Assembly: GCA_041650895.1 (NCBI GenBank)
Contig: JBAZKF010000001.1
Location: 765,181-829,180, forward strand
DNA length: 64,000 bases
Source of the DNA: Patescibacteria group bacterium
GTDB lineage: Bacteria; Patescibacteriota; Patescibacteriia; 2-01-FULL-39-33
Direction of reading: 5' to 3'
The translations under genes were made by a program, and so were the position numbers. Numbering within the stretch: position 1 is the first letter of the stretch; each line of letters starts with the position of its first letter. Below the pieces are notes generated by a model. That model ran no database searches and was not told where the DNA came from. It saw only the letters and a program-made list of their open reading frames with translations. This document shows positions 13,985-38,023 of the stretch, one piece after another.

Positions 13985-16849
13985 ATGGCTTCATACAAAG
14001 AATTCGTCGTTTCAGGCGGAGAAAAAAAATGGCAAGACAAGTGGTTGAACACCAAAATTGATCAAGCCGAAGACTTCAGCGTCAAGCCTAAAAAGTATGT
14101 TTTGGATATGTTTCCTTATCCGTCGGGAGCCGGACTCCATGTCGGTCATCCCGAGGGGTACACGGCAACTGACATTTATTCCCGTTACTTGCGTTTAAGG
14201 GGTTTTAATGTTTTACATCCTATGGGTTGGGATGCTTTCGGTTTGCCGGCGGAAAATTACGCCATAAAGACGGGTACTCATCCGCGCATTACTACTGAAG
14301 CCAACGTAACTACTTTTAGGCGTCAGATTCGGAGTTTGGGTTTTTCTTATGATTGGGACAGGGAAGTGGATACGACTGATCCTAAATATTATAAATGGAC
14401 ACAGTGGATATTTTTGCAATTATTTAAAAAGGGTTTGGCTTATGAGGCTACGGTGCCGATTAATTTTTGTCCGTCCTGCAAGACCGGCTTGGCCAATGAA
14501 GAAGTTAAAGACGGCAAATGTGACCGTTGCGGCACAACAGTGGAGAAAAAAGATTTACGTCAATGGATGTTGAAGATTACCGCCTACGCCGATAGATTAT
14601 TGGAAGGGATTAATGAATTGGATTGGCCGGAGTCAATCAAAGCCTTGCAGAGAAATTGGATTGGCCGAAGCGAGGGTGCGGAAGTTGATTTTAAAATTAG
14701 TAATAGTGAAGAACAAATTAGAGTTTATACTACGCGTCCCGATACTTTATTTGGTGCTACCTATATGGTTTTAGCGCCAGAGCATAAATTAGTTCAAGAG
14801 TTGAAAGACAAAATTAGTAATTTCTCTGAGGTTGAAGATTATATTAAGGAAGCGAAAAATAAATCAGATTTGGAAAGAACAGAATTAAATAAAAACAAAA
14901 CTGGTGTGGAATTAAGGGGGGTGAAGGCGGTTAATCCAGTCAATAACACTGAAATTCCGATTTGGATTTCTGATTATGTTTTGGCGACCTATGGCACCGG
15001 TGCGATCATGGCTGTGCCGGCGCACGATGAACGTGACTTTGAGTTTGCTAAAAAGTTTGATTTGCCGATTATTGAAGTGATTGTCCCGGAAAGAGTTGAC
15101 AAAAGGAATCCACCGGTAGACGGCAAGGAAAAGATAGAACGAAAAAATGTCCAAGTCGTTGTTCGCAATCCCAAGACAGGCAAAATCCTTTGCCTTCACT
15201 CAAAAAAATATAATTGGGTTACTTTTCCCATGGGAGGGATCGGTGAAAATGAAGGGTTGCTTGAAGCCGCTAAGCGGGAAGTGCTGGAGGAAACCGGTTA
15301 TAAGCATTTGACCAACGGTAAGGTCTTGGGCGGGCAGGTGCGCGCTGAGTATTTTGCTAATCATAAAAATGTTAATCGTGTTTCTTTCACTAATTTGGTG
15401 CAGTTTGATTTGGTTGATGACAAACAAGATGAGATAGCGGAAGAAGAAAAAGAAGCGCAGAATGAAATCTTATGGTTGGAACCGGAAAAACTGACTAATG
15501 AATTCATGGTGCATGCGGAAATGGATATTTGGCAGGAACGTATCAGAAAAGGCGATATGGCCTATACCGATGTTGACAACGGTATCATGATTAATTCCGG
15601 ATTTCTTAATGGCTTAGTGCCGGCAGAAGCTATTGGTAAGATGGCTGATTGGTTGGAAAAACAGGGTGTTGGTAAAAAAGCGGTTAATTATAAATTACGC
15701 GATTGGGTGTTCTCGCGTCAGCGTTATTGGGGTGAGCCGATTCCTTTAGTGCACTGCGGGAAATGCGGAATTGTACCTATGGCTGAGAAAGATCTACCTT
15801 TGGTTTTGCCGGAAGTGGAGAAATACGAGCCGACGGGAACTGGTGAGTCGCCACTGGCAACTATTGATGAATGGGTGAATACGATTTGCCCGAAATGCGG
15901 CGGTCCGGCTAAACGCGAAACCAATACAATGCCACAATGGGCTGGTTCATCTTGGTATTGGCTCAGGTACATTGATCCGCATAATAATAAAGTTTTTGCC
16001 GACCAGAAGAAATTAAAATATTGGTTGCCAGTCGATCTATATTTGGGCGGAGCCGAGCATGCGGTTTTGCATTTGCTTTATGCCAGATTTTGGAATATGG
16101 CTTTATTTGATATTGGCGTGATGCCTTTTGAAGAGCCATTTACCAAACTAATTAATCAAGGTTTGATTTTGGGCGAGGACGGTGAGAAAATGTCTAAATC
16201 CCGAGGCAATGTGGTTAACCCCGATGACATCTTAAAAGAATATGGCGCTGATACCTTCCGTCTGTATGAAATGTTCATAGGTCCTTTGGAAGATACGAAG
16301 CCCTGGAGCACTAAGAATATTCTAGGCGTACATCGGTTTTTAAATAAAGTGTGGGATATCGGTCAGCAAACTTTAGGTAGGGAAGAAAATAGCGAGGTAG
16401 AGATTTTGCTTAATAAAACCATTAAGAAAGTCGGCGATGATATTGAGGTGATGAGTTATAATACCGCCATCTCGTCCATGATGGTGCTAATAAATAAGGT
16501 TCAAGAAGTAAAAACTGCCAGTCAGGAACAGTGGGAGAAATTTCTAATTATTCTTTCTCCTTTTGCACCGCACTTGACGGAGGAATTGTGGGAAAAACTT
16601 GGCCATACAGCTAGTATTTTTAAAGAGTCGTGGCCGCAGTATGATCCGGCCAAAGTTATTGACACCGAAAAGGAAATCCCAGTTCAGGTTAATGGTAAGG
16701 TTAGAGCCAAATTGGTTTTGCCGACAAATGTAACAGAAGAGACGGCCAAAGCCGCGGCCTTAGCCGATGATAATGTAAAGAAATATTTGACCGGCGAGCC
16801 GAAGAAAGTAATCTTCGTTAAAGGTAGAATGATCAGTATCGTGGTTTAA
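13985..16849 (+). CDS. leuS: leucyl-tRNA synthetase with an inserted Nudix hydrolase domain
   Basis: HIGH motif 'HVGHPEGY', KMSKS 'KMSKSRGN', editing-domain end '[19 protein letters not shown]' and Zn knuckles. The Nudix box '[23 protein letters not shown]' lies inside an insert of about 150 aa (nt ~15100-15560). Confidence 0.95.
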
Positions 16850-16899: not shown

Positions 16900-18627
16900 T
16901 TAAAAAGTTACGATTTCAACCGTATCGCCTGATTTCAGTTTAACTTTTTCAAAGTCAGCTGAATCTACGACTTGGCCATGGAAAACAACTGTAATATCTT
17001 CTGGCTGGTTGTTCTCCCTAGCTAACAATTCTTTGATTGTTATTTCGCTAAAGACTATCCGTTTATATCCCTGGCGCGGAATAATAGTTACTGAATGAGT
17101 TTCAAAGAGTTGCTTGACCAGTTCAAATAATTCAGTTACGGCTTGGCAAGCTTCCTCTCGGATAAATTCCTGTTTTCGGGATAGCGTACCGATTCCAGTG
17201 ATCAATTTGGAAAACTTAAGAGCCATTTCGTCCTTGGTTTTATCCGGATGGACTAATTGTTGCCACTTTCGATAGCCGGCAGTAAGTTCTTCAGGTAGAG
17301 GATTCTTTTTGCCGCAGAGTATCAGCGACAAGACACCGCGCGCGTAAGGGTCATAATCAGCGAGTTGACGAAAATCAATAGAGTTAGAAAGATAGATCTT
17401 TTCTAAGCGGTCAAGTGGTTCTAGAGTTGAAAAGTCTTCTTCCCTCGCGATTAACTCAACTGGTTTGCTGGGTTTTGTATTAGTTATGTTTGGCTTACCA
17501 GCTTGAGGTTTAGGAATATTATCAGCCTGAGTTTCTTTCTTAAACCTCTGCTCAAAGAAAAATTCTATTTCCAAACTTTCAAATATTTTACTGTTGGCTT
17601 GGGCTAGTTTATTGACTCCATTAGTAATTGTCTTTTTTAATTCAGGATGTTTTTTTATACAAGCCATTAAAATGTTGCCAAATATGTTTAACCGCTCATC
17701 CTTAACTCGTTGCGGAGTCTTGAATGGTTTGAGTGATTTTTTTGCCTCTTTGCTGTCAGTAATGGCATAGAGCGGTATTTTATCATCTATAATATGACAG
17801 AGAGCAGTAAAAAGTTGGCCTAAAGCCTCAACCTCTTTGTTGTTTTTCTGAGAAGTTGATAAACCCTCAAAAATATCGAAACCACTTTTTACCAAATGAT
17901 CAATATTGGTAGCAATTGATTCTGGGTTAGAGATATGTCCAGGATACTGTGGCTTAAAAATCTGTTTGGTGATTTTAGCATCTGGCTGAGTCGGACCGGT
18001 CAAAAGCAATTGTCCGGATTGGTGTTCCAATTGTAATTGCAATCTTCCTGTTTCTTCATTGTGGCCGATAAGCGTAACGGTTTTTCCGGTTATGACTTGA
18101 GCAATTTTTATTAATCCGGCCGGCTGGGTTGTCTGATCGATTTTTTGCGCTAAAAGCTTGTCAAAATCAAACAAGACAATAACTAGCTTTTCTCGAATAT
18201 TGGGATATTCCCTTAAACACAATTCAAATAATAGCGATTCCAGAATTTTAATAATTATTTGTTGTCCGTGTATTTCTGATTGGGTAATCAAGAAAAAATT
18301 ATTACGCAGGCGTCGGAATAAGTCTAGAGCTTGTTGCTGGTTTTCTTGATGCAATGACCAATTGATGTTTTCTAGTAGATATGAAACATAGCCATCTCGA
18401 GTCAGGCGAGAAAATTTACTCGCTAAACTAGTTTGCTTTTTTTTGACACGAGCAATATTAATACTTTCAATTGTCATTTCGAAAAAGTTTTTTTGCGCTT
18501 TACACAATAATTCTTGATTATTAAATCTAGCCTCATCTTCGTCGTTAATTGTTCGTAAGGGGTCAGTCCGATTATTATTAGCGATCGGATTTTTCCCAAT
18601 GAATAAGCCGTCTCCGCGGTTGTTCAT
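16900..18627 (-). CDS. J-domain (DnaJ-like, HPD motif) protein with a large unknown N-terminal region and a beta-grasp-like C-terminus
   Basis: 'DYDPYARGVLSL...ELTAGYRKWQQLVHPDKTKDEMALKFSKL' fits the J-domain helices II-III with HPD. SD GGAGGATT is upstream. Confidence 0.55.
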   Translation of the reverse strand: MNNRGDGLFIGKNPIANNNRTDPLRTINDEDEARFNNQELLCKAQKNFFEMTIESINIARVKKKQTSLASKFSRLTRDGYVSYLLENINWSLHQENQQQALDLFRRLRNNFFLITQSEIHGQQIIIKILESLLFELCLREYPNIREKLVIVLFDFDKLLAQKIDQTTQPAGLIKIAQVITGKTVTLIGHNEETGRLQLQLEHQSGQLLLTGPTQPDAKITKQIFKPQYPGHISNPESIATNIDHLVKSGFDIFEGLSTSQKNNKEVEALGQLFTALCHIIDDKIPLYAITDSKEAKKSLKPFKTPQRVKDERLNIFGNILMACIKKHPELKKTITNGVNKLAQANSKIFESLEIEFFFEQRFKKETQADNIPKPQAGKPNITNTKPSKPVELIAREEDFSTLEPLDRLEKIYLSNSIDFRQLADYDPYARGVLSLILCGKKNPLPEELTAGYRKWQQLVHPDKTKDEMALKFSKLITGIGTLSRKQEFIREEACQAVTELFELVKQLFETHSVTIIPRQGYKRIVFSEITIKELLARENNQPEDITVVFHGQVVDSADFEKVKLKSGDTVEIVTF

Positions 18628-18868
18628 TACGTAATCCTCCGTTTTTTTGTAAAGAACTAATCATTTGACCCTATCATTTTTCATTATTTTTGTCAAATAA
18701 TTATTATCAATAAAAAGAGTACTCATTTTGAGCGCTATTAAAGTTGATGGTAGTAGTTGTTACAGATTAAATCCTATCGAATGTAACAGATTTTTATCGG
18801 CGGATGGTAATTTTTTTTAAATTCTTACTTAGTTAAATTTTCGTACGGCTTTGTTTTTTTGTACCAAT

Positions 18869-18900
18869 TGTCGGCATTTTTAACTGTCGGCATTTTTGAC
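18869..18900. repeat. tandem 16-nt direct repeat TGTCGGCATTTTT(A/G)AC x2 in divergent promoter region
   Basis: The two copies are 18869-18884 and 18885-18900, 15/16 identical. Confidence 0.5.
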
Positions 18901-19155
18901 GTTCTTCAATCTTTTTTGTTTTTCTGATTCGAGGAGTATAGATCTTAAAAAATAAAGAATGAATTCTAATTAAAATCATCGCCACCATTGGTTGTCATTT
19001 TTTTCAGATTTAGTGATCCCAACTTACAAAACCTGATAGTTTGATTATTTAGAATATAACGGAAAACCGCTTTTCTTCTAAAAAAGGCGGTTTTTTAAAA
19101 ATAAGTTTTGATTATTAATAAGATTAAACAATATTTGGAGTAATTATTGTTTTTA

Positions 19156-19164
19156 TGTTATAAT
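19156..19164 (+). promoter_or_regulatory. extended -10 promoter element TGTTATAAT upstream of the giant LVIVD gene
   Basis: TGnTATAAT lies about 40 nt upstream of the ATG at 19202. Confidence 0.4.
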
Positions 19165-19201
19165 AATAATAATTAAGAGTTAATAAAGTTGTCTTATTTC
19201 A

Positions 19202-22200
19202 ATGAAATTGTTTGTTGGAAAGTTGTTAGATTTTTTTTCTTTCATAATCGCCGTGATTGTAATGTTTTTTTTGTGTTATTTTTTGGGTTATTGGGGGTTA
19301 TTCTTGTCGTTATTGGGGGTATTTAATTTTTTTGTTTTTTACTTGCGTAAAACCGATAAGATTTTTCCGGTATTAGACGATTTTTTTATCCGCAAATGTC
19401 TTAAAGCCAAGGATAAACTTAATCTAAAAAGCAGTAATCATTTAGCCAAAGCTTCTTTTAGATTTTGGCATTTTTTATTTTTGCTTTTAACCAGCACTGA
19501 TAGGGGATTTAATAGTCTAGTCGACGCCGGTCAGCCGTTGGGTATCAAATTTCCTCTCAAGAGGACCAAAAAACATCAAGTGGTCGCCGAGTTATATTTG
19601 CAAGAGTATTACTTAATTCATCAGCAGAAAAAACAAAAAGCTTTTTATCAATCTTTTGTCGGTTCTTTTTTTGTTTTCGTTATTTCTATCGGGTCAGGGC
19701 TATTCGTTTCTTTACTTCTACCGTTTATTTTCTCCACTTCCGCCGCTACTTATACTTTTATTCAAACTGATTGGTCGGGAGGAGCCGATACTAACGCCAC
19801 TTCTAGCCACAGTAACGATAGAACCGGTTGGAATAAATTTTATAGTAAAGATGAATACATTTATGCCGGTACCAGTCTAAGCTTGGTTCAGCAGATGACT
19901 ACCTCCACTGATGATAGCGACTCTGATTTTTCAACCGGAACTTTTGATAGCACGCAGACTAATGGTAGCGGTTCATCAGCCGATCTTTCTTTGGCTACTC
20001 AATTTTTACCAACAGATTGGTCAACAAAATTAAAGAGTCATTTATCTTCTCCAACCATAACTCAACCTTTAGATGTTTTTGTGTCTGGTATATATGCTTA
20101 TGTGGCCGATGCTGCGAGCGGACTTAGGGTTGTTAATATATCAGATCCAACTAATCCAACTATTGTCGGAACTTACAATAGTCCGGGAGCAGCTTATGGG
20201 GTGATTGTAATCGGTTCTACTGCCTATGTTGCAGATGGGGGAAGTGGGTTAGCTATTGTAGATATTACTAATCCTGCCAGCCCTAGCTTGATTGGAGCAT
20301 ATACGACTGGGTTTTATAATGCTTATAAGGTTGCCATCTCAGGTAGTTATGCTTATGTGGCTGATGGCGATAATGGACTGAAAATAATTGATATTTCTAA
20401 TCCAGCTTCCCCGTCTTTGGTGGGGACTTACAATACTCCAGGGAGAGCTTACGACGTTGTTGTTTCTGGAAGCTATGCTTATGTGGCTGATAATAATGGT
20501 GGTTTACAAATAATTGATATCTCCAGTTCCACCAACCCAACATTAACTAAAGCGGTCACAACTTCACTAAACAAGGCTCGTGGCGTGTACCTTTCTGGCA
20601 GCTACGCCTATGTAGCTGATGACGACAATGGTTTAAAGGTGGTAAATATTACTGTTTTGGCCAGTGCTTCGGTGGTTGGTATCTATAATACTCCAAACCA
20701 GTCTTTTGGTGTAATGCTATCTGGAAATTATGCTTATGTGGCTGATAATACTGCTGGATTACAGATAATTGATGTTTCTTCTTCTACGGCCCCAACTTTA
20801 GCCAGCAATGCCAATATTAATTATGGTGGTGAAGCCCAGAGAGTTTTTGTCTCTGGTAATTATGCTTATGTAGCAGAACGTAATTCGGGATTTACAATTT
20901 ATGATATTAGCAGTACTCCCTATGTTCCAGTCAGTCAAACAGGAGTATATAATAGTAGCGGCAACGCTAGAGGGGTTTATGTATCTGGTGATTATGCTTA
21001 TGTAGCTGATGATGGATCTGGATTGCAAATTGTTGATATTTCTAATTCGGCATCCCCAAGCTTAGTCGGCACTCTTGGTTCTATTGGAAATGGTTATGGC
21101 GTTTATGCTTCTGGCACTTATGCCTATCTTGCTGCTTATGGTTCTGGTTTGCAGATTATCAATGTTTCTAATCCAGCTAGTCCTGTCGTCGCCGGTAACT
21201 ACGACACTACCGGAAATTCTTGGGCAGTAGATGTAAATGGTAACTATGCCTATGTGGCCGATAATACTGCCGGTTTACAGATAATTGATGTCTCTAATGT
21301 TGCTAGTCCGTCACTGACCGCTACTTATGTTCACACTGCTGGCAAGGCTGTTTATGACGTTAAAATTTCTGGTTCCTACGCTTATATAGCTTATAATGAC
21401 TTAGGCTTGGTGATTATTGATATTAGTAATCCAGCCTCTCCAGCTTATAAGGGAATTTATAATACTTCCGGCGCAGCTCGTGGAATTTCAATAGTTGGTA
21501 ATTATGCTTACGTGGCTGATAGCGCGTCTGGCTTACAGATAATTGACATCTCTAGTTCCACCAACCCGATCCTTATAGGGACTTTCAATACTTTTGGTTC
21601 ATCTGCCAGAGTTGATATCTCTGGCAATTATGCTTACGTGGCTGATACAAATGGTGGTTTACAAATTATAGATGTAGAAGATCCTGCTAATCCACGCTTA
21701 GTCAACTCTTATTTCTCAGTTACTAACATTGAAGATGTTAAAGTTGTAGGAAATAATGTATATCTTGCTTCAGTAGCTACGGGTTTAGAAATTCTTAATG
21801 TTTCTGGTTATGTCTCCTCGGGTACTTTTGAGTCTAGTATTATTGATACTACTTTTAATAAAGAATTTACTAATATTTATTTTGATTCTGCTGTTCCTGG
21901 TAGCACATCCTTATCAGTAAAGGCAAGGTCATCAGCTAATTCCGATATGTCCGGAGCAACTGACTGGGTTAGTTGTAACGCCTTAACCAGTAATCATGAT
22001 CCATCCTCTAATAATTGCATTACCGACGGTGAGCGTTATTTGCAGTATTATCTTTCTTTTGCTTCATCAGATCCGGATGTTTCGCCGGTTGTAGAGTCGG
22101 TAGCCGTGGCCTATTCCTCTTATCCCACTAGTCAGACTTTGGTTTCTTCCCCCTTTAACACGGAAGATGTCAGCGTGATCCTGGGCGATTTATCTTGGAC

Positions 22201-25200
22201 TGAGGATTTGCCCACCGGTACTAATGTTAAATTTCAGCTTCGCACTGCCTCTAGTTCCGATGGCGTCTGGACTGATTGGTTGGGGCCGACCGGAACTTCC
22301 ACTTATTATTCCTCGGCCGACGGCGATAATGAAATTAACTCTTTGCATAATGATCGCAGTGACGATCAATGGATTCAATATAAAGTTTATCTCACTTCTG
22401 CCGGCGATGAGACGCCGACTCTAAGTGATTTTAATTTAGTTTATGTGGTTAATGCGGCACCGGAATTTGAGAACGATCCCACTGTCTCACAGCGAGAAAG
22501 CGACGGATTAGTGGGAATAGCTTATTCAGTAAAAGATCGCGATACTGCTTCTACTGGGGTAGCTTGTCCCAATTGCGTGGTGCCGTCTTTTGAATATTCT
22601 ATTGATGGCGGGGCGAATTGGAATCCGATTACAGCTGGATTATCGGCTGGCGCCACTTCTTCCCTAACTGTTGCCTCTTCAACTTATACAACCTCAACAG
22701 TCACCTGGAATGCCAAGGAACAAATTGATGGCACTTATTCCGAGGAATTCAGAGTTAGAGTTACTATTAGCGATTTGGAAGGAGCCAATAGCACTGCTAC
22801 GGGAATTTCTGAAATTTTTACTTTGGATGTTAAAGATCCGACACTGGGTGATCCGTCAATTATAGTTGATGCTTCCCAGTCTCCAGCCGTTTTGACTTTG
22901 AACGCTTCTGATGATACTTTATCCGGGTTGCAGATGTGTATTAGTTTGGACAACTCTCTAACCAACTGCAAGGATTATGCTACCAGCGACACTATAGATG
23001 GGTTAAGTTCTCCGGATACGGTTTATGTAAAGTTCCGAGATAAATTTGGCAATGTTTCTTCCGATAACGCAGTAACTCCGGAGAAGCCGATTAATATGAT
23101 TATTCGCGATGTGTCCAATTTGGACACGAGTGAATATCAGGAATTCATCGTTTGGAAAGCAGTTTCTCTGCCTTTCCATGATTATAAAATCTATTATTCG
23201 ACTGACGGAGAAAATTATTCTTTACTACCCCTCATTGAGGATCGAGCCATTAACTATTACTTTCATAAAAACTTGAGCGTTGGTGCTACTTATTACTATA
23301 AGGTGGCAACGGCTGATGGCGATGGTAATGTTTCCGCTTTTTCTAGTGTTATATCCGATGAGCCTAACGGCCAAGGTGGAACAGATACTACTCCCCCGAC
23401 AATTTCTAATGTGGCCACTTCTACTGTCAGCACACAATCAGTAGTTATCACTTGGGATACGGACGAACTATCTAAGTCTTATGTTGATTATTCAACAAGC
23501 CCATTAGATCTAAATACTACTGTCGGCTCGGTTAGTATGGTGGATAATGCCACCGGTATCGGCGCGCATCAAGTAGTATTAAGCGGGCTTAGTCCCGGTA
23601 CTCACTATTATTTTAGGGTTCGTTCCACTGATATCGGCGACATTGAAGCAATTGACGATAATGATGGCGGCAATTATGATTTTACCACTTTGTCTGGTCC
23701 GGCTATCTCTGATGTGGCAGTGAGCCAAGTCAGTAATTCCGGAGCGACTATTGTTTGGACCACTAATGACACCGCCGATTCCTATGTTTATTATTCCACT
23801 TCTTCCGATTTGACCAACTCCAGTTACTCTGGTTCAGCCACAGCCGTTACCAATCATGAAGTTGTTGTTACTGGTCTTTCAGCCGGCACTACTTATTATT
23901 ATTATGTTAAATCCGGTGTTGGTGTAGCTAATAATGCAGGGGATTATTATTCGTTTATTACCACTAATGACGGCGTACCCCCGGTTATCAGTAATATTAC
24001 AGAATCGATTATTACCGACGTGGCTGTTTTAATTAATTGGAGCACTAATGAGTTATCCGATTCGGCGGTTTATTTTGGCACCTCCACCGGTTCTTACTCT
24101 TCTTCCAGCGCCGATACCGCGCAAACTACAAATCATGCCGTGGCATTGTTTGGCTTGACCACTAGTACCGAATATTTTTATATCGTGGTATCGGTTGATG
24201 CTAGCGGTAATATTTCTACCAGCACCACCGAATATGATTTTACTACTTTAGAAACTTTATCCGAGGAATCTATCGTGATTACTCGCGAAGAGCTAGCTCG
24301 TTTGGAAGGAGCTGCCGAAGCTGCTGAGTGTCCAGTTTGCCCGACCTGCGGTGGAGGCGGTGGTTCTTCAAACGATACCACAAAACCCATTATAACTGAC
24401 GTTTCCGCCATTAAAGAGACGGAGGGAAAAATAAAAGTTACTTGGAAAACTAATGAAAATAGCAACAGTTTTGTGGAATATAGCGTGGATGAATCTTTTA
24501 ATTTAATCGCCGGGCAATTTGATGCTGTTTCCAATCATACGGTCAGTATTAATAATTTACAGTCAGGCAGTATTTATAATTATCGGGTGGTTAGTCAGGA
24601 TCAATACGGTAATTTGTCGCGGTCAGACAACAAAACATTTGCTTTAGATAGTGGCTTGAATGAAATCAGTTCTTTGGCGCAAACCATCGGGGGAGATAGT
24701 AACCAACTGTTAATGTCGGTCGTCAATAAAGCCGGAGAAATCATCAGTCAGTTGGCTTTAAATGTTTCTATTGGGGCACTGGAAGACGCATTGAGTGCGC
24801 AATACAATTTAATCAGGCAATTATCTAATGCCATCCCGGCACCATTATTGTCCGGCGAACCGAAAGTTTTGGTTACTGCTAATACCGCCACTATCACTTG
24901 GCGAACCGACAAGGAATCAAACTCCCTCGTAGCGATTTCTCCGGCAGATAGTTATGATAGCACCAAAAAAGACGATGCCTATTTGCAGGTGATCGGCAAA
25001 TCCAATGAATTGACTCAACTCCATATAATTACGATTTCCGATCTGGAACCGGAAACTATCTACTATTATCAGGTTAGGAGTCGTACTCAATTGGGCTCAG
25101 ACAGCCGTTCGGAAAATTTTAGCTTTAAGACTTTAAGGAAGGAATTGGAAATAAACACTTATGCTGTGGAAAATATCAGTACGGAGAGAGCTATTTTCCG

Positions 25201-25822
25201 CTGGGTTACTAATATTGAGACCGATTCCCAAGTTAAATATGTGCCGTATCGCGGAGGTAAGCTAGCGGTTGAAGAAATGAAAACCGTAAAAAGTAAAGCC
25301 TTTTCCACAATTCACGAGATAACTGTAAGTGATTTTGAATCAGGTGTGGTTTATGAAATTGAATTATCCGGCAAAGATCCGGCCGGCCAGATAATCAGCA
25401 AGAAAATTGAGACATTTTCTACCGGCCAAGACGATCTACCGCCGGTAATCTATCAAGTGCAAACTGACTCTGCTTTGTCGGTGGGCAAGGAATCAAATGT
25501 GCAGACAATTATTTCTTGGCTGACTAACGAATTATCAACTGGTAAAGTCTATTATCAAAAAGGCGTTGGTCCGGTTGATGAACAGGCTTGGGAGGAAACG
25601 GCTTTAGACAGTAATTATACTAAAAAACATATCGCCGTAATCACCAAATTCGAGTCCGGAATGATTTATCGTTTTAAAATAGTAAGCGCTGATTCGGGCG
25701 GCAATGAAGCTACTTCTAATGTTTTTACTGTTTTAACGCCCAAACAAAAAGAGTCGGTATTCCAGGTGATTATGAATAATGCCGAAGATATTTTCGGTTG
25801 GACTAAGCAGTTAGGAATTTAA
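19202..25822 (+). CDS. giant (2206 aa) cell-surface protein: N-terminal membrane segments, LVIVD-repeat beta-propeller array, multiple Fn3/PKD-like domains
   Basis: Tens of repeats of the form 'GSYAYVADGDNGLKIIDISNPASPSLVGTYNT' (LVIVD repeat). The later blocks '...VITWTTDE..S.VYY...HEVVVTGLSAGTTYYYRV' are Fn3-like. The start (19202 vs M21) is uncertain. Confidence 0.8.
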   Translation: MKLFVGKLLDFFSFIIAVIVMFFLCYFLGYWGLFLSLLGVFNFFVFYLRKTDKIFPVLDDFFIRKCLKAKDKLNLKSSNHLAKASFRFWHFLFLLLTSTDRGFNSLVDAGQPLGIKFPLKRTKKHQVVAELYLQEYYLIHQQKKQKAFYQSFVGSFFVFVISIGSGLFVSLLLPFIFSTSAATYTFIQTDWSGGADTNATSSHSNDRTGWNKFYSKDEYIYAGTSLSLVQQMTTSTDDSDSDFSTGTFDSTQTNGSGSSADLSLATQFLPTDWSTKLKSHLSSPTITQPLDVFVSGIYAYVADAASGLRVVNISDPTNPTIVGTYNSPGAAYGVIVIGSTAYVADGGSGLAIVDITNPASPSLIGAYTTGFYNAYKVAISGSYAYVADGDNGLKIIDISNPASPSLVGTYNTPGRAYDVVVSGSYAYVADNNGGLQIIDISSSTNPTLTKAVTTSLNKARGVYLSGSYAYVADDDNGLKVVNITVLASASVVGIYNTPNQSFGVMLSGNYAYVADNTAGLQIIDVSSSTAPTLASNANINYGGEAQRVFVSGNYAYVAERNSGFTIYDISSTPYVPVSQTGVYNSSGNARGVYVSGDYAYVADDGSGLQIVDISNSASPSLVGTLGSIGNGYGVYASGTYAYLAAYGSGLQIINVSNPASPVVAGNYDTTGNSWAVDVNGNYAYVADNTAGLQIIDVSNVASPSLTATYVHTAGKAVYDVKISGSYAYIAYNDLGLVIIDISNPASPAYKGIYNTSGAARGISIVGNYAYVADSASGLQIIDISSSTNPILIGTFNTFGSSARVDISGNYAYVADTNGGLQIIDVEDPANPRLVNSYFSVTNIEDVKVVGNNVYLASVATGLEILNVSGYVSSGTFESSIIDTTFNKEFTNIYFDSAVPGSTSLSVKARSSANSDMSGATDWVSCNALTSNHDPSSNNCITDGERYLQYYLSFASSDPDVSPVVESVAVAYSSYPTSQTLVSSPFNTEDVSVILGDLSWTEDLPTGTNVKFQLRTASSSDGVWTDWLGPTGTSTYYSSADGDNEINSLHNDRSDDQWIQYKVYLTSAGDETPTLSDFNLVYVVNAAPEFENDPTVSQRESDGLVGIAYSVKDRDTASTGVACPNCVVPSFEYSIDGGANWNPITAGLSAGATSSLTVASSTYTTSTVTWNAKEQIDGTYSEEFRVRVTISDLEGANSTATGISEIFTLDVKDPTLGDPSIIVDASQSPAVLTLNASDDTLSGLQMCISLDNSLTNCKDYATSDTIDGLSSPDTVYVKFRDKFGNVSSDNAVTPEKPINMIIRDVSNLDTSEYQEFIVWKAVSLPFHDYKIYYSTDGENYSLLPLIEDRAINYYFHKNLSVGATYYYKVATADGDGNVSAFSSVISDEPNGQGGTDTTPPTISNVATSTVSTQSVVITWDTDELSKSYVDYSTSPLDLNTTVGSVSMVDNATGIGAHQVVLSGLSPGTHYYFRVRSTDIGDIEAIDDNDGGNYDFTTLSGPAISDVAVSQVSNSGATIVWTTNDTADSYVYYSTSSDLTNSSYSGSATAVTNHEVVVTGLSAGTTYYYYVKSGVGVANNAGDYYSFITTNDGVPPVISNITESIITDVAVLINWSTNELSDSAVYFGTSTGSYSSSSADTAQTTNHAVALFGLTTSTEYFYIVVSVDASGNISTSTTEYDFTTLETLSEESIVITREELARLEGAAEAAECPVCPTCGGGGGSSNDTTKPIITDVSAIKETEGKIKVTWKTNENSNSFVEYSVDESFNLIAGQFDAVSNHTVSINNLQSGSIYNYRVVSQDQYGNLSRSDNKTFALDSGLNEISSLAQTIGGDSNQLLMSVVNKAGEIISQLALNVSIGALEDALSAQYNLIRQLSNAIPAPLLSGEPKVLVTANTATITWRTDKESNSLVAISPADSYDSTKKDDAYLQVIGKSNELTQLHIITISDLEPETIYYYQVRSRTQLGSDSRSENFSFKTLRKELEINTYAVENISTERAIFRWVTNIETDSQVKYVPYRGGKLAVEEMKTVKSKAFSTIHEITVSDFESGVVYEIELSGKDPAGQIISKKIETFSTGQDDLPPVIYQVQTDSALSVGKESNVQTIISWLTNELSTGKVYYQKGVGPVDEQAWEETALDSNYTKKHIAVITKFESGMIYRFKIVSADSGGNEATSNVFTVLTPKQKESVFQVIMNNAEDIFGWTKQLGI

Positions 25823-25825
25823 TTT

Positions 25826-27169
25826 ATGTCTAAGCCGATAATTAAGACTAAAGACCTAAATGTTACTTATTTCCTGGGTAAAAGCAACCAGGTTAATGCT
25901 TTAATTGGCATTAACTTGGAAATTTATCCGGGCGAGTTCATAATTTTTTTCGGGCCATCCGGTTGTGGTAAATCCACGTTGCTTTATTCCATTGCCGGTT
26001 TGGAAAAAAATATTACCGGTGATGTCTTTATTGCCGATAAAAATTTATCTCAGCTTAGGGAGAAAGAGATTGATAAGCATCGGCAAAAGGTCATCGGTAT
26101 GATTTTCCAGGCTTATTATTTAATTCCTTCTTTGAGTGTAGTCAATAATATAGTTTTACCGCAGCTGCCTTTAGGCATCAACATTAAAGACCGGGAAACA
26201 AAAGCGTTGGAATTAATGAAATATTTCGGCGTTGAGGTTCAAGCCCGGAAATTGCCTAATGAGTTATCTGGTGGTCAGCAACAACGGGTAGCAATTTGTC
26301 GCGCCCTGATTAATGATCCGGAAATAATCTTAGCTGATGAACCGACCGGTAATTTGGATTCCAAGTCGGTTCAAGATGTAATGAAGTTGCTGGTCAAACT
26401 TAATGAGGAAAAAAAGAAGACTATTATTTTAGTCACCCATAACCCGGCAACTTTGGACTACGCCCATCGGGTTTTTTATATGCGAGATGGCAAATTGACT
26501 GACATCAAGAATAACCGCGAGGTTGGTACGATTCTGGATCAGGATAAATTTGTTGCCCCCGGTACTCCGGCTGAGAATCTGGAAAAACTGACGAAAACTC
26601 AAGCAGATTTGGCACTATTGGGGGGAGATAGCTTACTACTGGATATTAAGGCCAAAGCGATAGTCGCCGAAGCTCTTTCCGGACTTTCAACCGAAGAGAT
26701 AGGGGAGATTGAATACAAAGTTAAGGGCTTATTGGTCAAAGGAGTTAGACAGAGCGGGAAGTTGAAATCATTTTTACAGGAAAGGGTTAACCCTTTTGGT
26801 CCGGCTTGGTCCAAAAAAAGGTCAGTGATTTTAGCCGATAAGATTTCTGCTATTGTTAAGGAAATCAGGAGCTTATCTTTAGTTGAGCGGGAAGCTAAAG
26901 GGTTAGTGGAGAGTAATATACATGGCTTATCCCAAGCCAAGGAATTAAGGAAGTATTTATTTGATTATTTTGATTTCACCGCTTCCGGAATCAATTCACT
27001 CAAGAGAATTGATGATTTATTAAAGGATTTTATTTTGGATAAGATAGACGAAACTGAATTAGCTAGGCTTTTGGATGAGTCGGTGGCGACCGGGGGAGCC
27101 GGTTTAAATCGTCGATTAGTCAGAAAAATAATCAAGCATTTGAGACTTTTAAAACTGGGAAAAATATAA
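25826..27169 (+). CDS. ABC transporter ATP-binding protein (MacB/FtsE/LolD-like) with ~220-aa C-terminal helical extension
   Basis: Walker A 'GPSGCGKST', signature 'LSGGQQQRVAICRAL' and Walker B 'ILADEPTGNLD'. It starts 4 nt after the giant gene stop. Confidence 0.85.
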   Translation: MSKPIIKTKDLNVTYFLGKSNQVNALIGINLEIYPGEFIIFFGPSGCGKSTLLYSIAGLEKNITGDVFIADKNLSQLREKEIDKHRQKVIGMIFQAYYLIPSLSVVNNIVLPQLPLGINIKDRETKALELMKYFGVEVQARKLPNELSGGQQQRVAICRALINDPEIILADEPTGNLDSKSVQDVMKLLVKLNEEKKKTIILVTHNPATLDYAHRVFYMRDGKLTDIKNNREVGTILDQDKFVAPGTPAENLEKLTKTQADLALLGGDSLLLDIKAKAIVAEALSGLSTEEIGEIEYKVKGLLVKGVRQSGKLKSFLQERVNPFGPAWSKKRSVILADKISAIVKEIRSLSLVEREAKGLVESNIHGLSQAKELRKYLFDYFDFTASGINSLKRIDDLLKDFILDKIDETELARLLDESVATGGAGLNRRLVRKIIKHLRLLKLGKI

Positions 27170-27172
27170 GTT

Positions 27173-28372
27173 ATGAATTTTTTTGATGCCCTAAATCTTT
27201 CATTAAGAATGTTTAAAAATCGTCCGCTTAGGACTTTGTTGACTATTCTAGGCGTCGGTGTCGGTATCGGCACAGTTTTATTTTTAGTGTCTTTTGGTTA
27301 TGGCATCCAGCGGGCGATTTTGAGCCGCATTACCACTGCCGATTCTTTGTTGAGCTTAGATGTCAATCCTGGCGTATCCGGCTTAGTGGAAATAAATAAG
27401 GAAAATATCAGTAGCATGGCGACAATTCCCGGCGTAGTTGAGACCAGCCGTATGGCTAATATTTACTCGCAGATAAATTTTAACGGCAATTCTTCAGACG
27501 GTTTGTCATACATTATTGATCCGTCCTTTTTTCGTTTAGGCGGCATTAAGGTTTCAATTGGGCAAGAATTTTCAGAGACGGAAGAGGATAGCGCGGTTAT
27601 TTCCACTGCTGTGGCCTCGTTGTTTAATGTTTTACCGGAGGAGATAATAGATCAGGAGATTGGCTTAACTTTTTATATTAATAAAGTTGATGAAAATGGC
27701 AATGAAGATATCCAAGCGATTCAAGCCAGCAGGAAATACAGAGTTGTCGGGGTAGTGGATGATGAGAATACCAGCTATGTTTTCGTACCTTTTGATGATA
27801 TAACAGAGAGCCAAATAAATAAATTTGACCAGCTAAAGGTCAAAGTATCATCAGTGGAGGAGATGGGAGCAGTGCGCGATGGCATTATTGAAAAAGGTTT
27901 TTTAGTTTCTTCATTGTCTGACACGATTGATCAAGCTAATAAAATTTTTGGTGTAATCCAGATTATTTTGTCGTTATTCGGCTTAGTGGCGCTTTTGGTT
28001 TCCGCGATCGGCATGTTTAATACGATGACGATTGCTTTATTGGAACGGACTAACGAAATCGGTATTATGAGGTCAATTGGCATTACCGGCAAGGATATCA
28101 GAAAAATATTTTTATTGGAATCTGGCATCATGGGACTTATGGGCGGGTTGGGCGGAATCATAATCGGTTTTATAGGCGGATTATCGGTCAATTTGGCGAT
28201 TAATATGTTAGCTAGGAATTTTGGCGGCAAAGCGCTCAATCTTTTTTATACGCCCTGGGAATTTATTTTTTTCATTGTTGTTTTTTCCATTATTGTCGGT
28301 GTTCTCACTGGTATTTATCCTTCGTTTAGGGCTTCCAAACTTAATCCGCTGGACGCTCTAAGATATAAATAA
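27173..28372 (+). CDS. ABC transporter permease, FtsX/MacB-type (4 TM, large extracytoplasmic loop)
   Basis: TM1, then a ~230-aa loop, then three C-terminal TMs with the FtsX-like 'ERTNEIGIMRSIGITGKDIRKIF'. Confidence 0.85.
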   Translation: MNFFDALNLSLRMFKNRPLRTLLTILGVGVGIGTVLFLVSFGYGIQRAILSRITTADSLLSLDVNPGVSGLVEINKENISSMATIPGVVETSRMANIYSQINFNGNSSDGLSYIIDPSFFRLGGIKVSIGQEFSETEEDSAVISTAVASLFNVLPEEIIDQEIGLTFYINKVDENGNEDIQAIQASRKYRVVGVVDDENTSYVFVPFDDITESQINKFDQLKVKVSSVEEMGAVRDGIIEKGFLVSSLSDTIDQANKIFGVIQIILSLFGLVALLVSAIGMFNTMTIALLERTNEIGIMRSIGITGKDIRKIFLLESGIMGLMGGLGGIIIGFIGGLSVNLAINMLARNFGGKALNLFYTPWEFIFFIVVFSIIVGVLTGIYPSFRASKLNPLDALRYK

Positions 28373-28480
28373 GTTCTGGTGATTACAACAGCCACAAACC
28401 TTTTAATCGGCCTTGCTGGACAATAAGGGCGGTATTTGGTAATTTATAGAAGGCAATGATTATTATTAGTAATATAGTTT

Positions 28481-29554
28481 ATGTCTACTCACAAAGCGCA
28501 TGGCGATTTTTCTGATTTTTTAGACTCTCGTGGCGTTATTACCTATGCCACCGGCAATGAGGTCTATGATGGTAAATTACTTAAGGCCATTATGGCTCAA
28601 CAACCTAAAGAAGGAACCTTTATCGATTTTTATCCCGCGACTGAAATTCAGTCCGACCTAGATCTACTGGAACAAATAAAAGGAGATCCCAAGTATCGTC
28701 GAGAGCGCAGTTCGGCCGAAGTTTTGGGCGAAGCGGAGGTTTTTCGTTCTATTGCCAGGCGCGATTGGTTTGTTGGGGCTATAGCTAAAAAAGCCAGTGA
28801 GTATGATGATTTGGTCCATGGCACTGATGTCGTAGCTTACATACCAGATATTGATGATCCGGACAATGAAGAAGCCATGATTCCCTTAGCGATTGATGCA
28901 ACAGTAACAACAGAAGAAGAAGTGATTGATAAAAAGATAACGACTTCTTTGGCGCGCGTCCGTTATCAAAAAAGAAGCCCGGGAAATAGAGGCGGAAGAT
29001 TAACTAAATTGAAATATATCCGTGATGATGATGGACAGCCATTAAAACGGACGATGAATCATTGTATTTTGGCTCTAACCCCGGATAAGGCTAAGGTTTT
29101 AGGGCAAGAGAGTTTAGGCCAAGATATTTCTCCAGACATTAAATTGGAGACGGAATTGCAAAGCTTGTTGGCCGTTAGGCGGCAAGCCTTAGTCCACATA
29201 ATTATCATACTTTCCGATTTTCATCTATGGGGCATAAATGAAAAGATTAAAAATGAACTAAGACTTGCCTTCCAGCAGGATGGCGGTCGGCAATTAGAAG
29301 TTGATATTATAACAGAATATTTGTCAAAGAATATAGAGTCGCTTAGGCAGAATTTGAAGCGGAAAAAACAAGCTCCGGAAATAGCAATAAGCTTAGAAGA
29401 GGATTGGAAAATTATGCGCTATTTTGATCAATTGATTAAGAATAAGAAAGCGTTGGAAAAAAATCAGGGGTGGTTTAATGCTGTTTATGAGGACTGTTTC
29501 AATGCATCAGAGCGTGTTACTGATTTGATATTATTAAATCCATATAAAAGCTAA
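28481..29554 (+). CDS. hypothetical protein
   Basis: 357-aa ORF with no recognisable motif. Confidence 0.5.
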   Translation: MSTHKAHGDFSDFLDSRGVITYATGNEVYDGKLLKAIMAQQPKEGTFIDFYPATEIQSDLDLLEQIKGDPKYRRERSSAEVLGEAEVFRSIARRDWFVGAIAKKASEYDDLVHGTDVVAYIPDIDDPDNEEAMIPLAIDATVTTEEEVIDKKITTSLARVRYQKRSPGNRGGRLTKLKYIRDDDGQPLKRTMNHCILALTPDKAKVLGQESLGQDISPDIKLETELQSLLAVRRQALVHIIIILSDFHLWGINEKIKNELRLAFQQDGGRQLEVDIITEYLSKNIESLRQNLKRKKQAPEIAISLEEDWKIMRYFDQLIKNKKALEKNQGWFNAVYEDCFNASERVTDLILLNPYKS

Positions 29555-29565
29555 ATTTAAATAAC

Positions 29566-29599
29566 AAAAAATAATCAGTCGCGGCTGATTATTTTTTTT
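29566..29599. terminator. bidirectional rho-independent terminator
   Basis: Stem ataatcag/ctgattat flanked by AAAAA and TTTTTTTT. It lies between convergent genes. Confidence 0.6.
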
Positions 29600-29618
29600 G
29601 CCTATTTATTTAAGATAA

Positions 29619-31265
29619 TTAGGATTTGCCTAAGATGATCGCAATGTCGGCGGAAGATTTTAAGCTAGCTGGCGCGGCAGTAGCGTCTACGCCGTAAATA
29701 ATTTGCAATTCTGAAGTGGTTAACTGGTATTTGCCGCCGCTTAAATCATAAATTTTTATCGTCGTATATCCCTTGGTGGCGGCGTTGCCGCTATTTATTA
29801 CATTAAATCCCTTGGTTTTCAAACGAGTCGCTTCTTGGCCGGCCCAGCCAGTTATCATTGTGCCGTTTAGCACTTCAATGCGTGCCCGTTCTTTTTGGTA
29901 AGTCGGCTCCCCTTGAATTGTCGGATCATCAGGGTATAGCTTGGTTGTATCAGCTGTAGTGATAATCGGTTTTGTTGCGGGGGTGTTGGCTGTGTCGTTC
30001 GTTTTTATGGTAGCAACGGTGGATGAGGCGGTGGTGGCTTTAGTGGAGGTAGTATCTTTGAACTCCGCCCATTTAGTCTTATTAATCAATAGGTCTTTGC
30101 CGATCTCCGGCAGGTAAATATTTTGCCAGATGAATTTAATTTTGTCGTAGTTTCCGCCATAGGGCAAAAGCACATAGGCACCGTTAACTATCTGATCGTA
30201 TAGAAATTGCTCAGTCCCATCAACTAAACTGTAGGTGATGACACCTTGACTGAAATCGATATCGCGTCCGAATTGTAAAAGACGCATCATTTCCCAAACC
30301 TGCAAATTAGTATGGACGTTTTCATTATACATCTCGAGTAGCCCGTTGATTTTTTGTGGATTAAAGAAAGTGCCGGGAGCGAGAATTTTGTCTTTTAGGG
30401 CCAAAAGGATTTTTTGCTGGCGTTTGGATCGGGCAAAGTCCGAACCTTCCACACCCAGGGCGTGGCGGCTACGGGCGTATTTGAGAGCCAAAGAGCCATC
30501 CATATGTTGCTGTCCTTTTTTGATTACCAGTTTTTCATAGCGGCTTTCAATTGGGTAAGAATCTTCACGTCCGCGGACGGGGTAGGAATAATCCACTAGA
30601 TCACGCTCTACATCAACATCTACGCCACCGAAATTATCAATCAGTTTTTCAAAACCGTCAAAATCAACCGTAGCGTAATACTGGATGTCAATATCTAATA
30701 GGTCAGATAAGGTCTGACGCATAGTTTCATCGCCACTGCCCGCTTTCTTTTTGTCGGCAATAGCGCGGATGCCATTGATTTTTACCCAACCATAGCCAGG
30801 ACTTTTGACGTATAGATCTCGAGGAATAGACATTAGGGCGATTTGTCTGGTTGATGGTTTATAACTGGCTAGAATGATTGTGTCGGCTAATTCTGCTCCT
30901 TCATGATCGCCGCCGCCAATACCCATAATTATGAAATTAATGCGATCTTCGCTTTCGCCCTTAAGCTCGCGATCGGCTGAAGTGATTAAGCTACCGACTT
31001 GGCTTAGCCAATTGAACTGGGACAGGTTTTTTATTAAATTTTCATTAGAGAAGGCGATGGAGGAAGAAAAAACGATAAAAGCCACAATGGAAGCTATAGC
31101 CAGGCTAATAATCAGTTTTTTAAAACTAAAACGCCGCCTGCGGGGTGCAGACACGGCTGGTCCGGCAGTTTCGGAATATGGCATAGTCTGCTGTTTGGCA
31201 GTAAAAGCCGGTTTTTCTTGGATTATTGGATCATTGATAAAGTTGACTCTGATGGGGTCAGACAT
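29619..31265 (-). CDS. LytR-CpsA-Psr (LCP) family cell-envelope phosphotransferase
   Basis: N-terminal TM anchor and the LCP core 'GGGDHEGAELADTIILASYKPSTRQIALMSIPRDLYV'. Confidence 0.85.
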   Translation of the reverse strand: MSDPIRVNFINDPIIQEKPAFTAKQQTMPYSETAGPAVSAPRRRRFSFKKLIISLAIASIVAFIVFSSSIAFSNENLIKNLSQFNWLSQVGSLITSADRELKGESEDRINFIIMGIGGGDHEGAELADTIILASYKPSTRQIALMSIPRDLYVKSPGYGWVKINGIRAIADKKKAGSGDETMRQTLSDLLDIDIQYYATVDFDGFEKLIDNFGGVDVDVERDLVDYSYPVRGREDSYPIESRYEKLVIKKGQQHMDGSLALKYARSRHALGVEGSDFARSKRQQKILLALKDKILAPGTFFNPQKINGLLEMYNENVHTNLQVWEMMRLLQFGRDIDFSQGVITYSLVDGTEQFLYDQIVNGAYVLLPYGGNYDKIKFIWQNIYLPEIGKDLLINKTKWAEFKDTTSTKATTASSTVATIKTNDTANTPATKPIITTADTTKLYPDDPTIQGEPTYQKERARIEVLNGTMITGWAGQEATRLKTKGFNVINSGNAATKGYTTIKIYDLSGGKYQLTTSELQIIYGVDATAAPASLKSSADIAIILGKS

Positions 31266-37700: not shown

Positions 37701-38023
37701 CCAATATCGAGTTCAATAAATGCCGTTATAAAATAGATGATGAATATAATACTGTAGGTTGTGTTACTGATTTAGATTTGACCATGCCGTCTCCCGTTAA
37801 TAAAGTCAACCCAGTTTCTTTTGGTTATATGAACTGCAAGGATATTGTCAGCGCTAAGCCGAATTGTACTAAAACTTGTATGGAACCAATTGCCACCTCC
37901 GCCGATGCAACTCAATTCAAATATGGCAGTTGGGTGATAACTAAGGATTTCCCTACCGCCGACGCTAGTGGAGTTACTCGGTGTTGTTTGGGAAAATGCT
38001 GCGATGGCGCCAGTTGTAATTAA
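34703..38023 (+). CDS. giant (1106 aa) secreted/anchored protein with N-terminal VirB2/TrbC-like (T4SS-pilin-type) helical hairpin and Gly-rich linker
   Basis: The order is signal-like segment, then 'VIFGLLGVIVLLLIIYGGFIWMTAGGDPDKVNKAKKIIYNAIIGLIIIFAAFAITTWLMGLF', then GGGAGGGGG, then a large Cys-containing extracellular region. The N-terminal module is paralogous to that of the next gene. Confidence 0.7.
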   Translation: MSKAFVPMQKFSRSNSAWGGNLKSFLIVTGNTKRALALILVFFISFFGFVFASSVLAQDANLQAVGQAAGIATETSLATYIGRVLQVIFGLLGVIVLLLIIYGGFIWMTAGGDPDKVNKAKKIIYNAIIGLIIIFAAFAITTWLMGLFGPRGGGAGGGGGIPGGPDDWGRGGVGNGPIESVYPAANQTNVPINTRVVVTFKSNIKSDSICVPNAEGYCSNSASKNIEICEADTTAIPRKCLETGDFTAQAFDGANTIVTQTPNNAKTFVFMTTGSFLGKEDNTNREFMVTLKNGIIASSTGESIFKLWKMDYYSWSFKTNGKLDLDPPQIVKYEIYPYPDTDKDLYSVSSQSTLGRSTTTILSLAGLKAEKPIRLQGEYFLGRPLKKELTNTSGNAPSGFKAYVSTQSGFDLGAGTASFTVSSDGRTATFSSDSPAPLISKAFTIVNGVSFDLGNGLTIAAEGGTFSQGSRWMFTAETAVAGDTYAINNGSNKINFIFSSDAYSNGANISKTQVGADGQPVTVNYVAAVKANNIGDTLENLRSAIAGSEAKNSVNAFIAPIGLLRYLIIEPKGSGANALSIEKSAANDTMTVSGDLSGKDKAQLKTPQGAAPDPYNNSIFFVTFNKAINPLNLSDTIRVQNQVGTVWTDIAAERIKYEISNQYRTVQMTGIYACGKNACGKERYCWIDPSAGIAAKSEPFRVAVSAAVLQSCKGKSIDDVDNAWCKRWGGQCEGDAYDRCRKNDIYYPQAALESTTGITDMAGNSLNGNYTSAVDDKGKVVGAADGRTGQATAGTFYGYSGKANPYLVNDTFMVENGVEKPTYDANPAKGDDFSWSFFISTVIDDKSPLLFSIQPKGDQRWGQDISETFGDPIIFAFDRLMNPATLKPGFGYGEGLADRDFYIRFLMLNTVTQNANPVGYWGSVKNLDEGDVYGQGSGDGLIDYSAALLDHNPYDQAVTYAPGAGSGLESITQNCYLPGAGPRNAAADSSVLPSGWGYQANIEFNKCRYKIDDEYNTVGCVTDLDLTMPSPVNKVNPVSFGYMNCKDIVSAKPNCTKTCMEPIATSADATQFKYGSWVITKDFPTADASGVTRCCLGKCCDGASCN

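Follow-up and report, generated by a model that had tools for sequence, protein, structure and literature searches.

ATP-binding cassette (ABC) machines of type VII do not translocate proteins across the membrane; they act mechanically on extracytoplasmic partners. FtsEX acts in this way on EnvC, PcsB, CwlO and RipC, and LolCDE on lipoproteins, via an extracytoplasmic domain (ECD) of the machine. Permeases of this FtsX/MacB type, with four transmembrane (TM) helices, lack a substrate channel through the membrane, in which they differ from the ABC_membrane-type exporters of type 1 secretion. We analysed a locus of this class in a Patescibacteria group bacterium (assembly GCA_041650895.1, contig JBAZKF010000001.1, positions 765,181 to 829,180 of the forward strand). 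This stretch of 64,000 nt is called the window hereafter, and positions are counted from its first nucleotide. Much of bacterial diversity belongs to the Patescibacteria, many of which are thought to live attached to host cells, by molecules that are largely unknown. The locus is a block of three genes, in which a giant surface protein precedes an ATPase and a permease (the ABC pair):

19202-25822, + strand: giant surface protein, 2206 amino acids (aa) (open reading frame (ORF) list, translation, Pfam)
25826-27169, + strand: ABC ATPase, 447 aa (ORF list, Pfam ABC_tran)
27173-28372, + strand: type VII ABC permease, 399 aa, four TM helices (Pfam MacB_PCD and FtsX, hydropathy)

Both junctions have a spacer of 3 nt, reading ...GGA ATT TAA ttt ATG... 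between giant and ATPase and ...AAA ATA TAA gtt ATG... between ATPase and permease. Positions and spacers were exactly those given in an initial annotation of the window, according to the ORF list and to direct reading of the sequence. Judged by strong model matches and by orthologous three-gene blocks elsewhere, the block is not a chance assembly.

The giant-protein family and the ABC pair form a conserved gene neighbourhood, as seen from either side. Among eight ATPase homologues, chosen only for lying on long contigs, five had a member of the giant family next door, in three gene arrangements. An orthologous giant lay directly upstream in three of the eight loci (L001, L003 and L172), in otherwise unrelated contexts. 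At L173 a short-form giant of 731 aa was found directly downstream of the permease, and at L007 a 363-aa member in divergent orientation, with the same terminal domain and tail (hhalign probability 95%, hmmsearch E 2e-12), was located about 850 nt upstream.

From the side of the giant, metagenomes were scanned with its C-terminal alignment, which gave 347 relatives; the 80 loci returned, together with the earlier ones, made a set of 87. The ATPase and permease were immediately downstream of the giant in 37 of these, and the order ATPase-permease-giant was found in three. Other genes lay downstream in 38, and for only about eight of these is the sequence also known over more than 2.3 kb upstream. 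With nine loci uninformative, the pair was thus directly adjacent in 40 of 78. The chance adjacency of two given genes is about 0.2% by our own estimate, assuming a genome of roughly 1000 genes. Adjacency of about 50%, in three arrangements, against about 0.2% expected by chance, therefore indicates that the neighbourhood is real and conserved. When clustered at 70% identity, the loci formed 50 clusters, 25 of which contained a linked member, and linked loci were distributed throughout the tree of C-terminal modules, including its deepest clade (37-41% identity), although they are not fully independent phylogenetically. Adjacency was thus seen between lineages whose giant C-termini share as little as about 38% identity. 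No other gene of the window travels with the block in the related loci compared, and the gene tables of loci L004-L007 showed no other gene recurring beside the ABC pair. It is this gene neighbourhood that supports a functional link between the giant family and the pair. A lack of conserved synteny elsewhere was the refuting condition named in the initial annotation, and the loci compared do not refute the link in this way.

One clade of short-form giants, of about 650-710 aa, lacks the ABC pair (L142, L145, L146, L148, L150, L151, L155 and L159). Its members share a different downstream neighbour, a large ORF (at least about 3300 aa in L150) without any Pfam domain.

The giant protein can be divided into four parts:

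19202-19744, + strand: N-terminal pre-region, residues 1-181, or 1-183 by comparison with orthologues (hydropathy, comparison with the L001 orthologue)
20069-21886, + strand: variable head with 14 LVIVD repeats, residues about 290-895 (Pfam LVIVD, repeat register)
22130-25153, + strand: conserved stalk, residues 977-1984 (BLASTP against L001 and L003, Pfam on segments, tblastn against more than 80 loci)
25154-25819, + strand: most conserved C-terminal module, residues 1985-2206 (alignment A2, hidden Markov model (HMM))

The pre-region consists of a hydrophobic hairpin (residues about 1-48), a loop of about 100 aa and a signal-peptide-like helix (about 150-181) ending in TSA|ATY. It is weakly conserved, with 33% identity to the L001 orthologue over residues 7-184. 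The pattern of a hydrophobic helix, small residues and ATYTFxQTDWSGG was present in 11 full-length long-form relatives, and the short-form members (650-740 aa) have an ordinary signal peptide in place of the long-form pre-region. From this N-terminal pattern we infer that the giant is exported by Sec. Signal peptidase possibly cleaves at TSA|ATY, and if so, the mature giant would have no membrane anchor of its own.

Both kinds of module announced by the initial annotation, LVIVD repeats and Fn3-like domains, were matched above the Pfam gathering scores. LVIVD (PF08309) gave E 4e-151 and 490.5 bits against a cutoff of 20.2, in 13 stretches. The repeats, described at first as dozens, number 14, in register with a period of 42-44 aa over residues about 290-895, which would be enough for two 7-bladed beta-propellers. 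This part of the protein also matches TIGR04312 ('choice-of-anchor B', NCBIfam) below cutoff. The Fn3-like sandwich Pur_ac_phosph_N (PF16656) was found with E 1e-44 (151 bits, cutoff 30) and fn3 (PF00041) with E 4e-20 (72.4 bits, cutoff 25). Segment scans and the family HMM together gave about eight Fn3-like modules, at residues about 1300-2210.

Conservation is very uneven along the protein. The head (residues about 185-976) is not conserved: it is made of LVIVD repeats in the window giant, and of Fib_succ_major and F5_F8_type_C in the L001 orthologue. The C-terminal half (residues 977-2206) shares 42-46% identity with the L001 and L003 orthologues over about 1100-1270 aa (BLASTP). Within it, the stalk combines Fn3-like modules with two conserved inserts, helical or Cys/Gly-rich, at residues about 1680-1725 (with CPVCPTCGGGGG) and about 1815-1880. 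Residues 1985-2206 comprise two Fn3-like domains and the tail PKQKESVFQVIMxNxEDxFGW, which is near-invariant at the C-terminal end of the giant (alignment A2). The last 213 residues are 63% identical to a 215-aa ORF of L003, and the terminal-domain HMM matches residues 2084-2210 of the window giant with E 2e-65. No part of the giant is better conserved than the C-terminal module, while the head differs from one orthologue to another by replacement.

The giant is apparently split in some relatives (L003, 5801-9997 and 2620-5699; L172, 1-4824), for example into 1174 aa and 215 aa at L003. Separate Fib_succ_major proteins lie just 5', as if the head were encoded apart or the gene disrupted; an assembly artefact is possible.

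One metagenome (Ga0307992) yielded four giants (L114, L116, L117 and L118) with 96-100% identity over their C-terminal 350-400 aa. The DNA downstream of them is unrelated, their protein sequences diverge upstream of this part, and only L116 adjoins an ABC pair. The simplest reading of these sequences is that they are paralogous giants, from one or from closely related genomes, with a homogenised C-terminal module, which suggests gene conversion or recent duplication.

The ATPase is composed of two parts:

25826-26506, + strand: nucleotide-binding domain (NBD), residues 1-227 (Pfam ABC_tran)
26507-27166, + strand: C-terminal extension, residues 228-447 (AlphaFold2 models, homologue alignments)

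Pfam recognises ABC_tran on residues 28-174 only. The helical extension of about 220 aa that had been described from the sequence was borne out: it has no Pfam match, is predicted to be all-helical (AlphaFold2, the last 80 or so residues with high confidence), and is retained over its entire length in more than 100 homologues, themselves full-length, whose whole-protein identity is about 50% (46-53%). None of the close homologues lacks it (alignments A1 and A3). Internally it is duplicated, a unit of about 55 aa with the motif LD...GGxGLDKRTAxK occurring in two copies (hhalign probability 97%, E 7e-11). Comparison of the extension with the PDB gave no significant fold match. A single-sequence search with this tail in 1.84 billion representatives returned 58 matches, all of them C-termini of ABC-like proteins or fragments, and none was the C-terminus of a non-ABC protein.

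Homologues of the ATPase that bear a name are labelled Patescibacteria group, Candidatus Falkowbacteria, Parcubacteria group or just 'bacterium'; barring one fragment of the same sequence (P0001), the closest relative in the searched protein collection is about 53% identical. The NBD is nearest to the LolD/DevA/MacB/FtsE group in NCBIfam, with every equivalog score below cutoff, and resembles MJ0796, BceA, MacB and PsdA. A MacB_PCD/FtsX permease adjoins the extended ATPase in all nine loci examined gene by gene (window included), as well as in the linked loci that reach far enough downstream. On this evidence, the extended ATPase (NBD and duplicated tail, followed by a MacB_PCD/FtsX permease) is an unnamed type VII subfamily restricted to the candidate phyla radiation (CPR).

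A scan of the genome collection with the full-length ATPase alignment was discarded. Its 80 loci (L008-L087) were ordinary MacB-type ATPases of other phyla, aligned over residues about 1-230 only, and it was uninformative because the automatically chosen patterns (FFGPSGCGK, LSGGQQQR[VI]) were too generic.

The permease has its TM helices at residues 18-46, 255-291, 312-347 and 355-387 (hydropathy). Pfam detects MacB_PCD on residues 21-238 (E 4e-20, 73 bits, cutoff 27) and FtsX on residues 268-392 (E 1e-19, 71 bits, cutoff 25.5), in agreement with its first description as an FtsX-like permease. The loop between TM1 and TM2 is also there, although by hydropathy it measures about 210 aa and not the 230 or so first estimated:

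27311-27934, + strand: extracytoplasmic MacB_PCD domain of the permease, residues about 47-254 (Pfam and hydropathy)

The protein thus shows what defines a type VII ABC permease, four TM helices, a large ECD between TM1 and TM2 and a C-terminal FtsX domain, and its ECD matches MacB_PCD, not the small FtsX-type ECD. Among the families of the equivalog models it is nearest to MacB and LolC/E. In a sequence search of the PDB the closest solved permease was Bacillus subtilis YtrF (9o9x_C, E 3e-33), with MacB and LolC/E/F ranking after it.

The label 'MacB-type' used in the initial annotation holds at the level of the superfamily only, since the equivalog models for LolD, LolC/E, MacB, FtsE and FtsX all scored far below cutoff. 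The NBD-permease fusion of MacB proper is absent, the two being separate ORFs, and the MacB equivalog PRK10535 gave 185 and 83 bits for a cutoff of 966; neither MacA nor TolC is encoded next to the pair, be it in the window or in the loci with gene tables. LolD (TIGR02211) reached 198 bits for 307.75, and lolCE (TIGR02212) 81 for 362. Scores were 173 bits for 264.85 with FtsE (TIGR02673), and 37-49 bits with the FtsX models, whose cutoffs are 225-255.

These elements can be assembled into a model in which the block is a Patescibacteria-specific cell-surface module. The giant would be exported by Sec via its signal-peptide-like helix and small-residue site, giving a mature N-terminus ATYTFxQTDWSGG. 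Its swappable head (14 LVIVD blades here) would confer binding specificity, the Fn3-rich stalk and C-terminal module being constant. The ATPase and permease would constitute a type VII (MacB/FtsX/Lol-like) machine, whose ATP-driven movement is passed outward through the MacB_PCD domain of about 210 aa. As its partner we propose the conserved C-terminal part of the giants, either the helical inserts, the terminal Fn3-and-tail module, or both, and the machine may retain, release or reshape the giants at the cell surface; the initial annotation had suggested that the pair may anchor, process or actuate the giant. A single machine might serve several paralogous giants with a common C-terminal module, and the duplicated helical tail of the ATPase may be a cytoplasmic regulatory or dimerisation element. 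A mechanical partnership is favoured because type VII systems act outside the membrane and the giant has its own Sec-type N-terminus. Domain identities, architecture, conserved neighbourhood and the C-terminal module common to paralogue-like loci are observed, whereas we infer the route of export, the cleavage, any contact between the proteins, the direction in which the machine acts and the function of the ATPase tail. We give direct action of the pair on the giants an even chance of being right, and our confidence in any particular contact site is lower.

Several observations weigh against direct action. The initial annotation took the three genes for a translationally coupled operon; their adjacency does recur far above chance, but it is not obligatory, and the 3-nt spacing is specific to the window genome, the gap between giant and ATPase ranging from -2 to several hundred nt elsewhere. 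Three of the eight ABC pairs (L004-L006) are surrounded by ribosomal, tRNA and division genes, and no member of the giant family occurs within +/-10 kb of them. Conversely, about half of the giant loci have other downstream genes, for instance DNA polymerase III alpha, Pol I or FtsZ, and at least eight are unlinked on both sides. The conserved adjacency could be partly inherited rather than selected. Finally, the C-terminal tail of the giant carries no known sorting motif and, considered as a possible membrane helix, is only moderately amphipathic, with a hydrophobic moment of about 0.4.

In the strongest alternative, the pair would be a type VII system of general housekeeping in Patescibacteria, for example one controlling cell-wall remodelling in the manner of FtsEX or YtrEF, and the giant a frequent neighbour without direct coupling. 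Adjacency would then result from co-regulation of envelope genes or from slow decay of an ancestral arrangement. Searches recovered the ATPase far more often, with more than 100 full-length homologues, than the giant, with 15 protein matches for its C-terminus; three of eight pairs stand alone among the ribosomal, tRNA and division genes, the architecture of the ATPase is identical in linked and unlinked loci, and the closest solved permease, YtrF, belongs to the FtsX family and is implicated in cell-wall phenotypes (PMC12772383, PMC8060467). Such a role is harder to reconcile with an adjacency kept in 25 clusters at less than 70% identity, in three orders and orientations, while the other flanks were reshuffled. 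Moreover, neither a peptidoglycan hydrolase nor any other recurrent partner lies beside the pair in the examined loci, and the FtsX-specific NCBIfam models remain at 37-49 bits for cutoffs of 225-255. We consider this alternative possible, though somewhat doubtful.

Direct action on the giants can also be pushed further. The C-terminal Fn3 domains and tail would then be a new sorting or anchoring signal of surface proteins, common to several giants with variable heads in each genome and recognised by a dedicated ABC machine of the MacB-like kind, with a regulatory tail specific to the CPR, which mounts, holds or releases the giants with ATP. This specific form is speculative, and we regard it as rather improbable. 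If true, it would amount to an energised attachment apparatus, with which episymbiotic Patescibacteria might engage or release their hosts.

A role of the pair in MacB- or BceAB-like efflux or antimicrobial-peptide resistance, unrelated to the giant, fits the data poorly. The likeness of the NBD to MJ0796, BceA, MacB and PsdA would agree with it, as would the name given to a homologue in one database ('ABC-type antimicrobial peptide transport system, ATPase component'). However, the loci with gene tables have neither a membrane-fusion protein nor a TolC-like gene nor a two-component system next to the pair, the permease has four TM helices where BceB-type permeases have ten, and the giant family is the sole recurrent neighbour. 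An efflux pump is therefore unlikely. A dedicated secretion system for the giant, similar to type 1 secretion, fits poorly as well and is hardly credible: LapA and other giant adhesins have their genes close to their own ABC secretion system and are retained by it (bioRxiv 10.1101/198937), but here the permease is of the FtsX/MacB four-helix type, the signal-peptide-like helices with small-residue sites at the N-termini of the giant and its relatives are typical of Sec, and the giant has no C-terminal secretion signal of the RTX or GG type.

The DNA preceding the block was inspected for regulatory signals:

18628-19201, strand not applicable: AT-rich intergenic region of 574 nt, 5' of the giant (GC 0.335 in the interval 18001-20000; sequence reading)

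ORFs starting within it are all 51 aa or shorter, and it is the probable promoter region of the giant. It contains a clean hairpin followed by a T-run (19064-19098, + strand, aaaaccgc...gcggtttttt), about 100 nt before the giant start. There is no + strand gene 5' of this hairpin for it to terminate, and it could be a leader, an attenuator or a small RNA. Rfam gave no match anywhere in the window. A promoter and terminator scan of 18500-29700 gave nothing beyond what shuffled sequence gives, and is uninformative on internal transcription signals.

The window has a GC content of about 42%, and its other genes are housekeeping genes and further giant surface proteins. Three neighbours, a 357-aa ORF, a 575-aa ORF and a LytR-CpsA-Psr gene, were considered as members of the block and rejected, as they have no counterparts in the related loci. 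The 357-aa ORF (28481-29554, + strand) encodes a soluble protein without Pfam or NCBIfam match and begins 108 nt after the permease; it could be co-transcribed with the block, since no terminator-like site was detected between it and the permease. In the 575-aa ORF (16900-18627, - strand) only a C-terminal ThiS/ubiquitin-like domain was seen (residues 527-575, TIGR01683, E 1.5e-7, below cutoff). The leucyl-tRNA synthetase (954 aa, 13985-16849, + strand) carries a NUDIX insert (PF00293, residues 386-507, E 8.5e-13) directly after its CP1 editing domain (residues 223-373), and L005 has an isoleucyl-type synthetase with a His_Phos_1 insert.

A second cluster of surface proteins, all on the + strand, comprises 34703-38023 (1106 aa), 38044-50625 (4193 aa) and 50637-51512 (291 aa). 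The first two have an N-terminal T4SS_pilin domain (PF18895), to which the 4193-aa protein adds Lamin-tail and Laminin_G_3; the third is a TSP3-repeat protein. The 4193-aa giant was rejected as a paralogue of the one studied here, as its architecture is different and its only match, of about 39 aa, is to unrelated parts of two related loci.

No description of a cassette joining a giant protein to an ABC pair was found in the literature, and a module of type VII ABC system and giant protein is apparently undescribed. The block provides a recurrent candidate for attachment, a head-swappable family of giants tied to an ATP-driven type VII machine. Two conserved elements that had not been characterised emerge from its analysis: in the ATPase the duplicated helical tail, and in the giant the C-terminal module.

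Among known systems, the LapA-type adhesins offer the same association of a giant, repeat-rich surface protein with a neighbouring ABC system that possibly holds the giant at the surface (bioRxiv 10.1101/198937). That system is a type 1 secretion ABC exporter with a TolC-like pore, found in diderms, and LapA has no Sec signal, whereas the block combines a type VII ABC system with a giant that has a Sec-type N-terminus. Sortase/LPXTG, exosortase/PEP-CTERM and the C-terminal domains of type IX secretion may resemble the block in their logic, with variable passengers, a C-terminal module common to paralogues, and the candidate machine beside only some of them. They differ in that the module of the block has neither a TM helix nor a recognised sorting motif, and in that an ABC system takes the place of a peptidase as the candidate machine.

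Closer likeness is found within type VII. MacB (MacAB-TolC) and LolCDE share MacB_PCD, FtsX and four TM helices with the permease, and LolD, MacB and DevA are the NBDs most similar to that of the block. In contrast to MacB, the NBD is not fused to the permease and no MacA or TolC was seen beside the block; as for LolCDE, the release of lipoproteins to an outer membrane needs a two-membrane cell, and Patescibacteria have one membrane. B. subtilis YtrEF, also from a single-membrane bacterium, has separate NBD and MacB-like permease subunits and includes the closest solved permease (9o9x, E 3e-33 over TM2-TM4); its ATPase matches too. However, the match excludes the ECD, YtrE (251 aa) has no C-terminal extension and the ytr operon has no giant surface protein. 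The function of YtrEF is itself unresolved (PMC12772383).

FtsEX, like the block, has a separate ATPase and a four-helix FtsX-fold permease, for which mechanical action on an outside protein is proposed; its partner has conserved helical segments, and the partner gene is not always adjacent. It differs by the size of its ECD (about 100 aa in FtsX, against the MacB_PCD domain of about 210 aa in the block), by the FtsE and FtsX model scores of the block, far below cutoff, and by the extra 220-aa helical tail of the block's ATPase. The partners differ as well, a peptidoglycan hydrolase or its activator for FtsEX, and Fn3 surface proteins of 0.36-3 thousand aa as candidates for the block. The block would add giant Fn3 surface proteins, as a new class of partners, to the mechanotransmission carried out by FtsEX, LolCDE and MacB.

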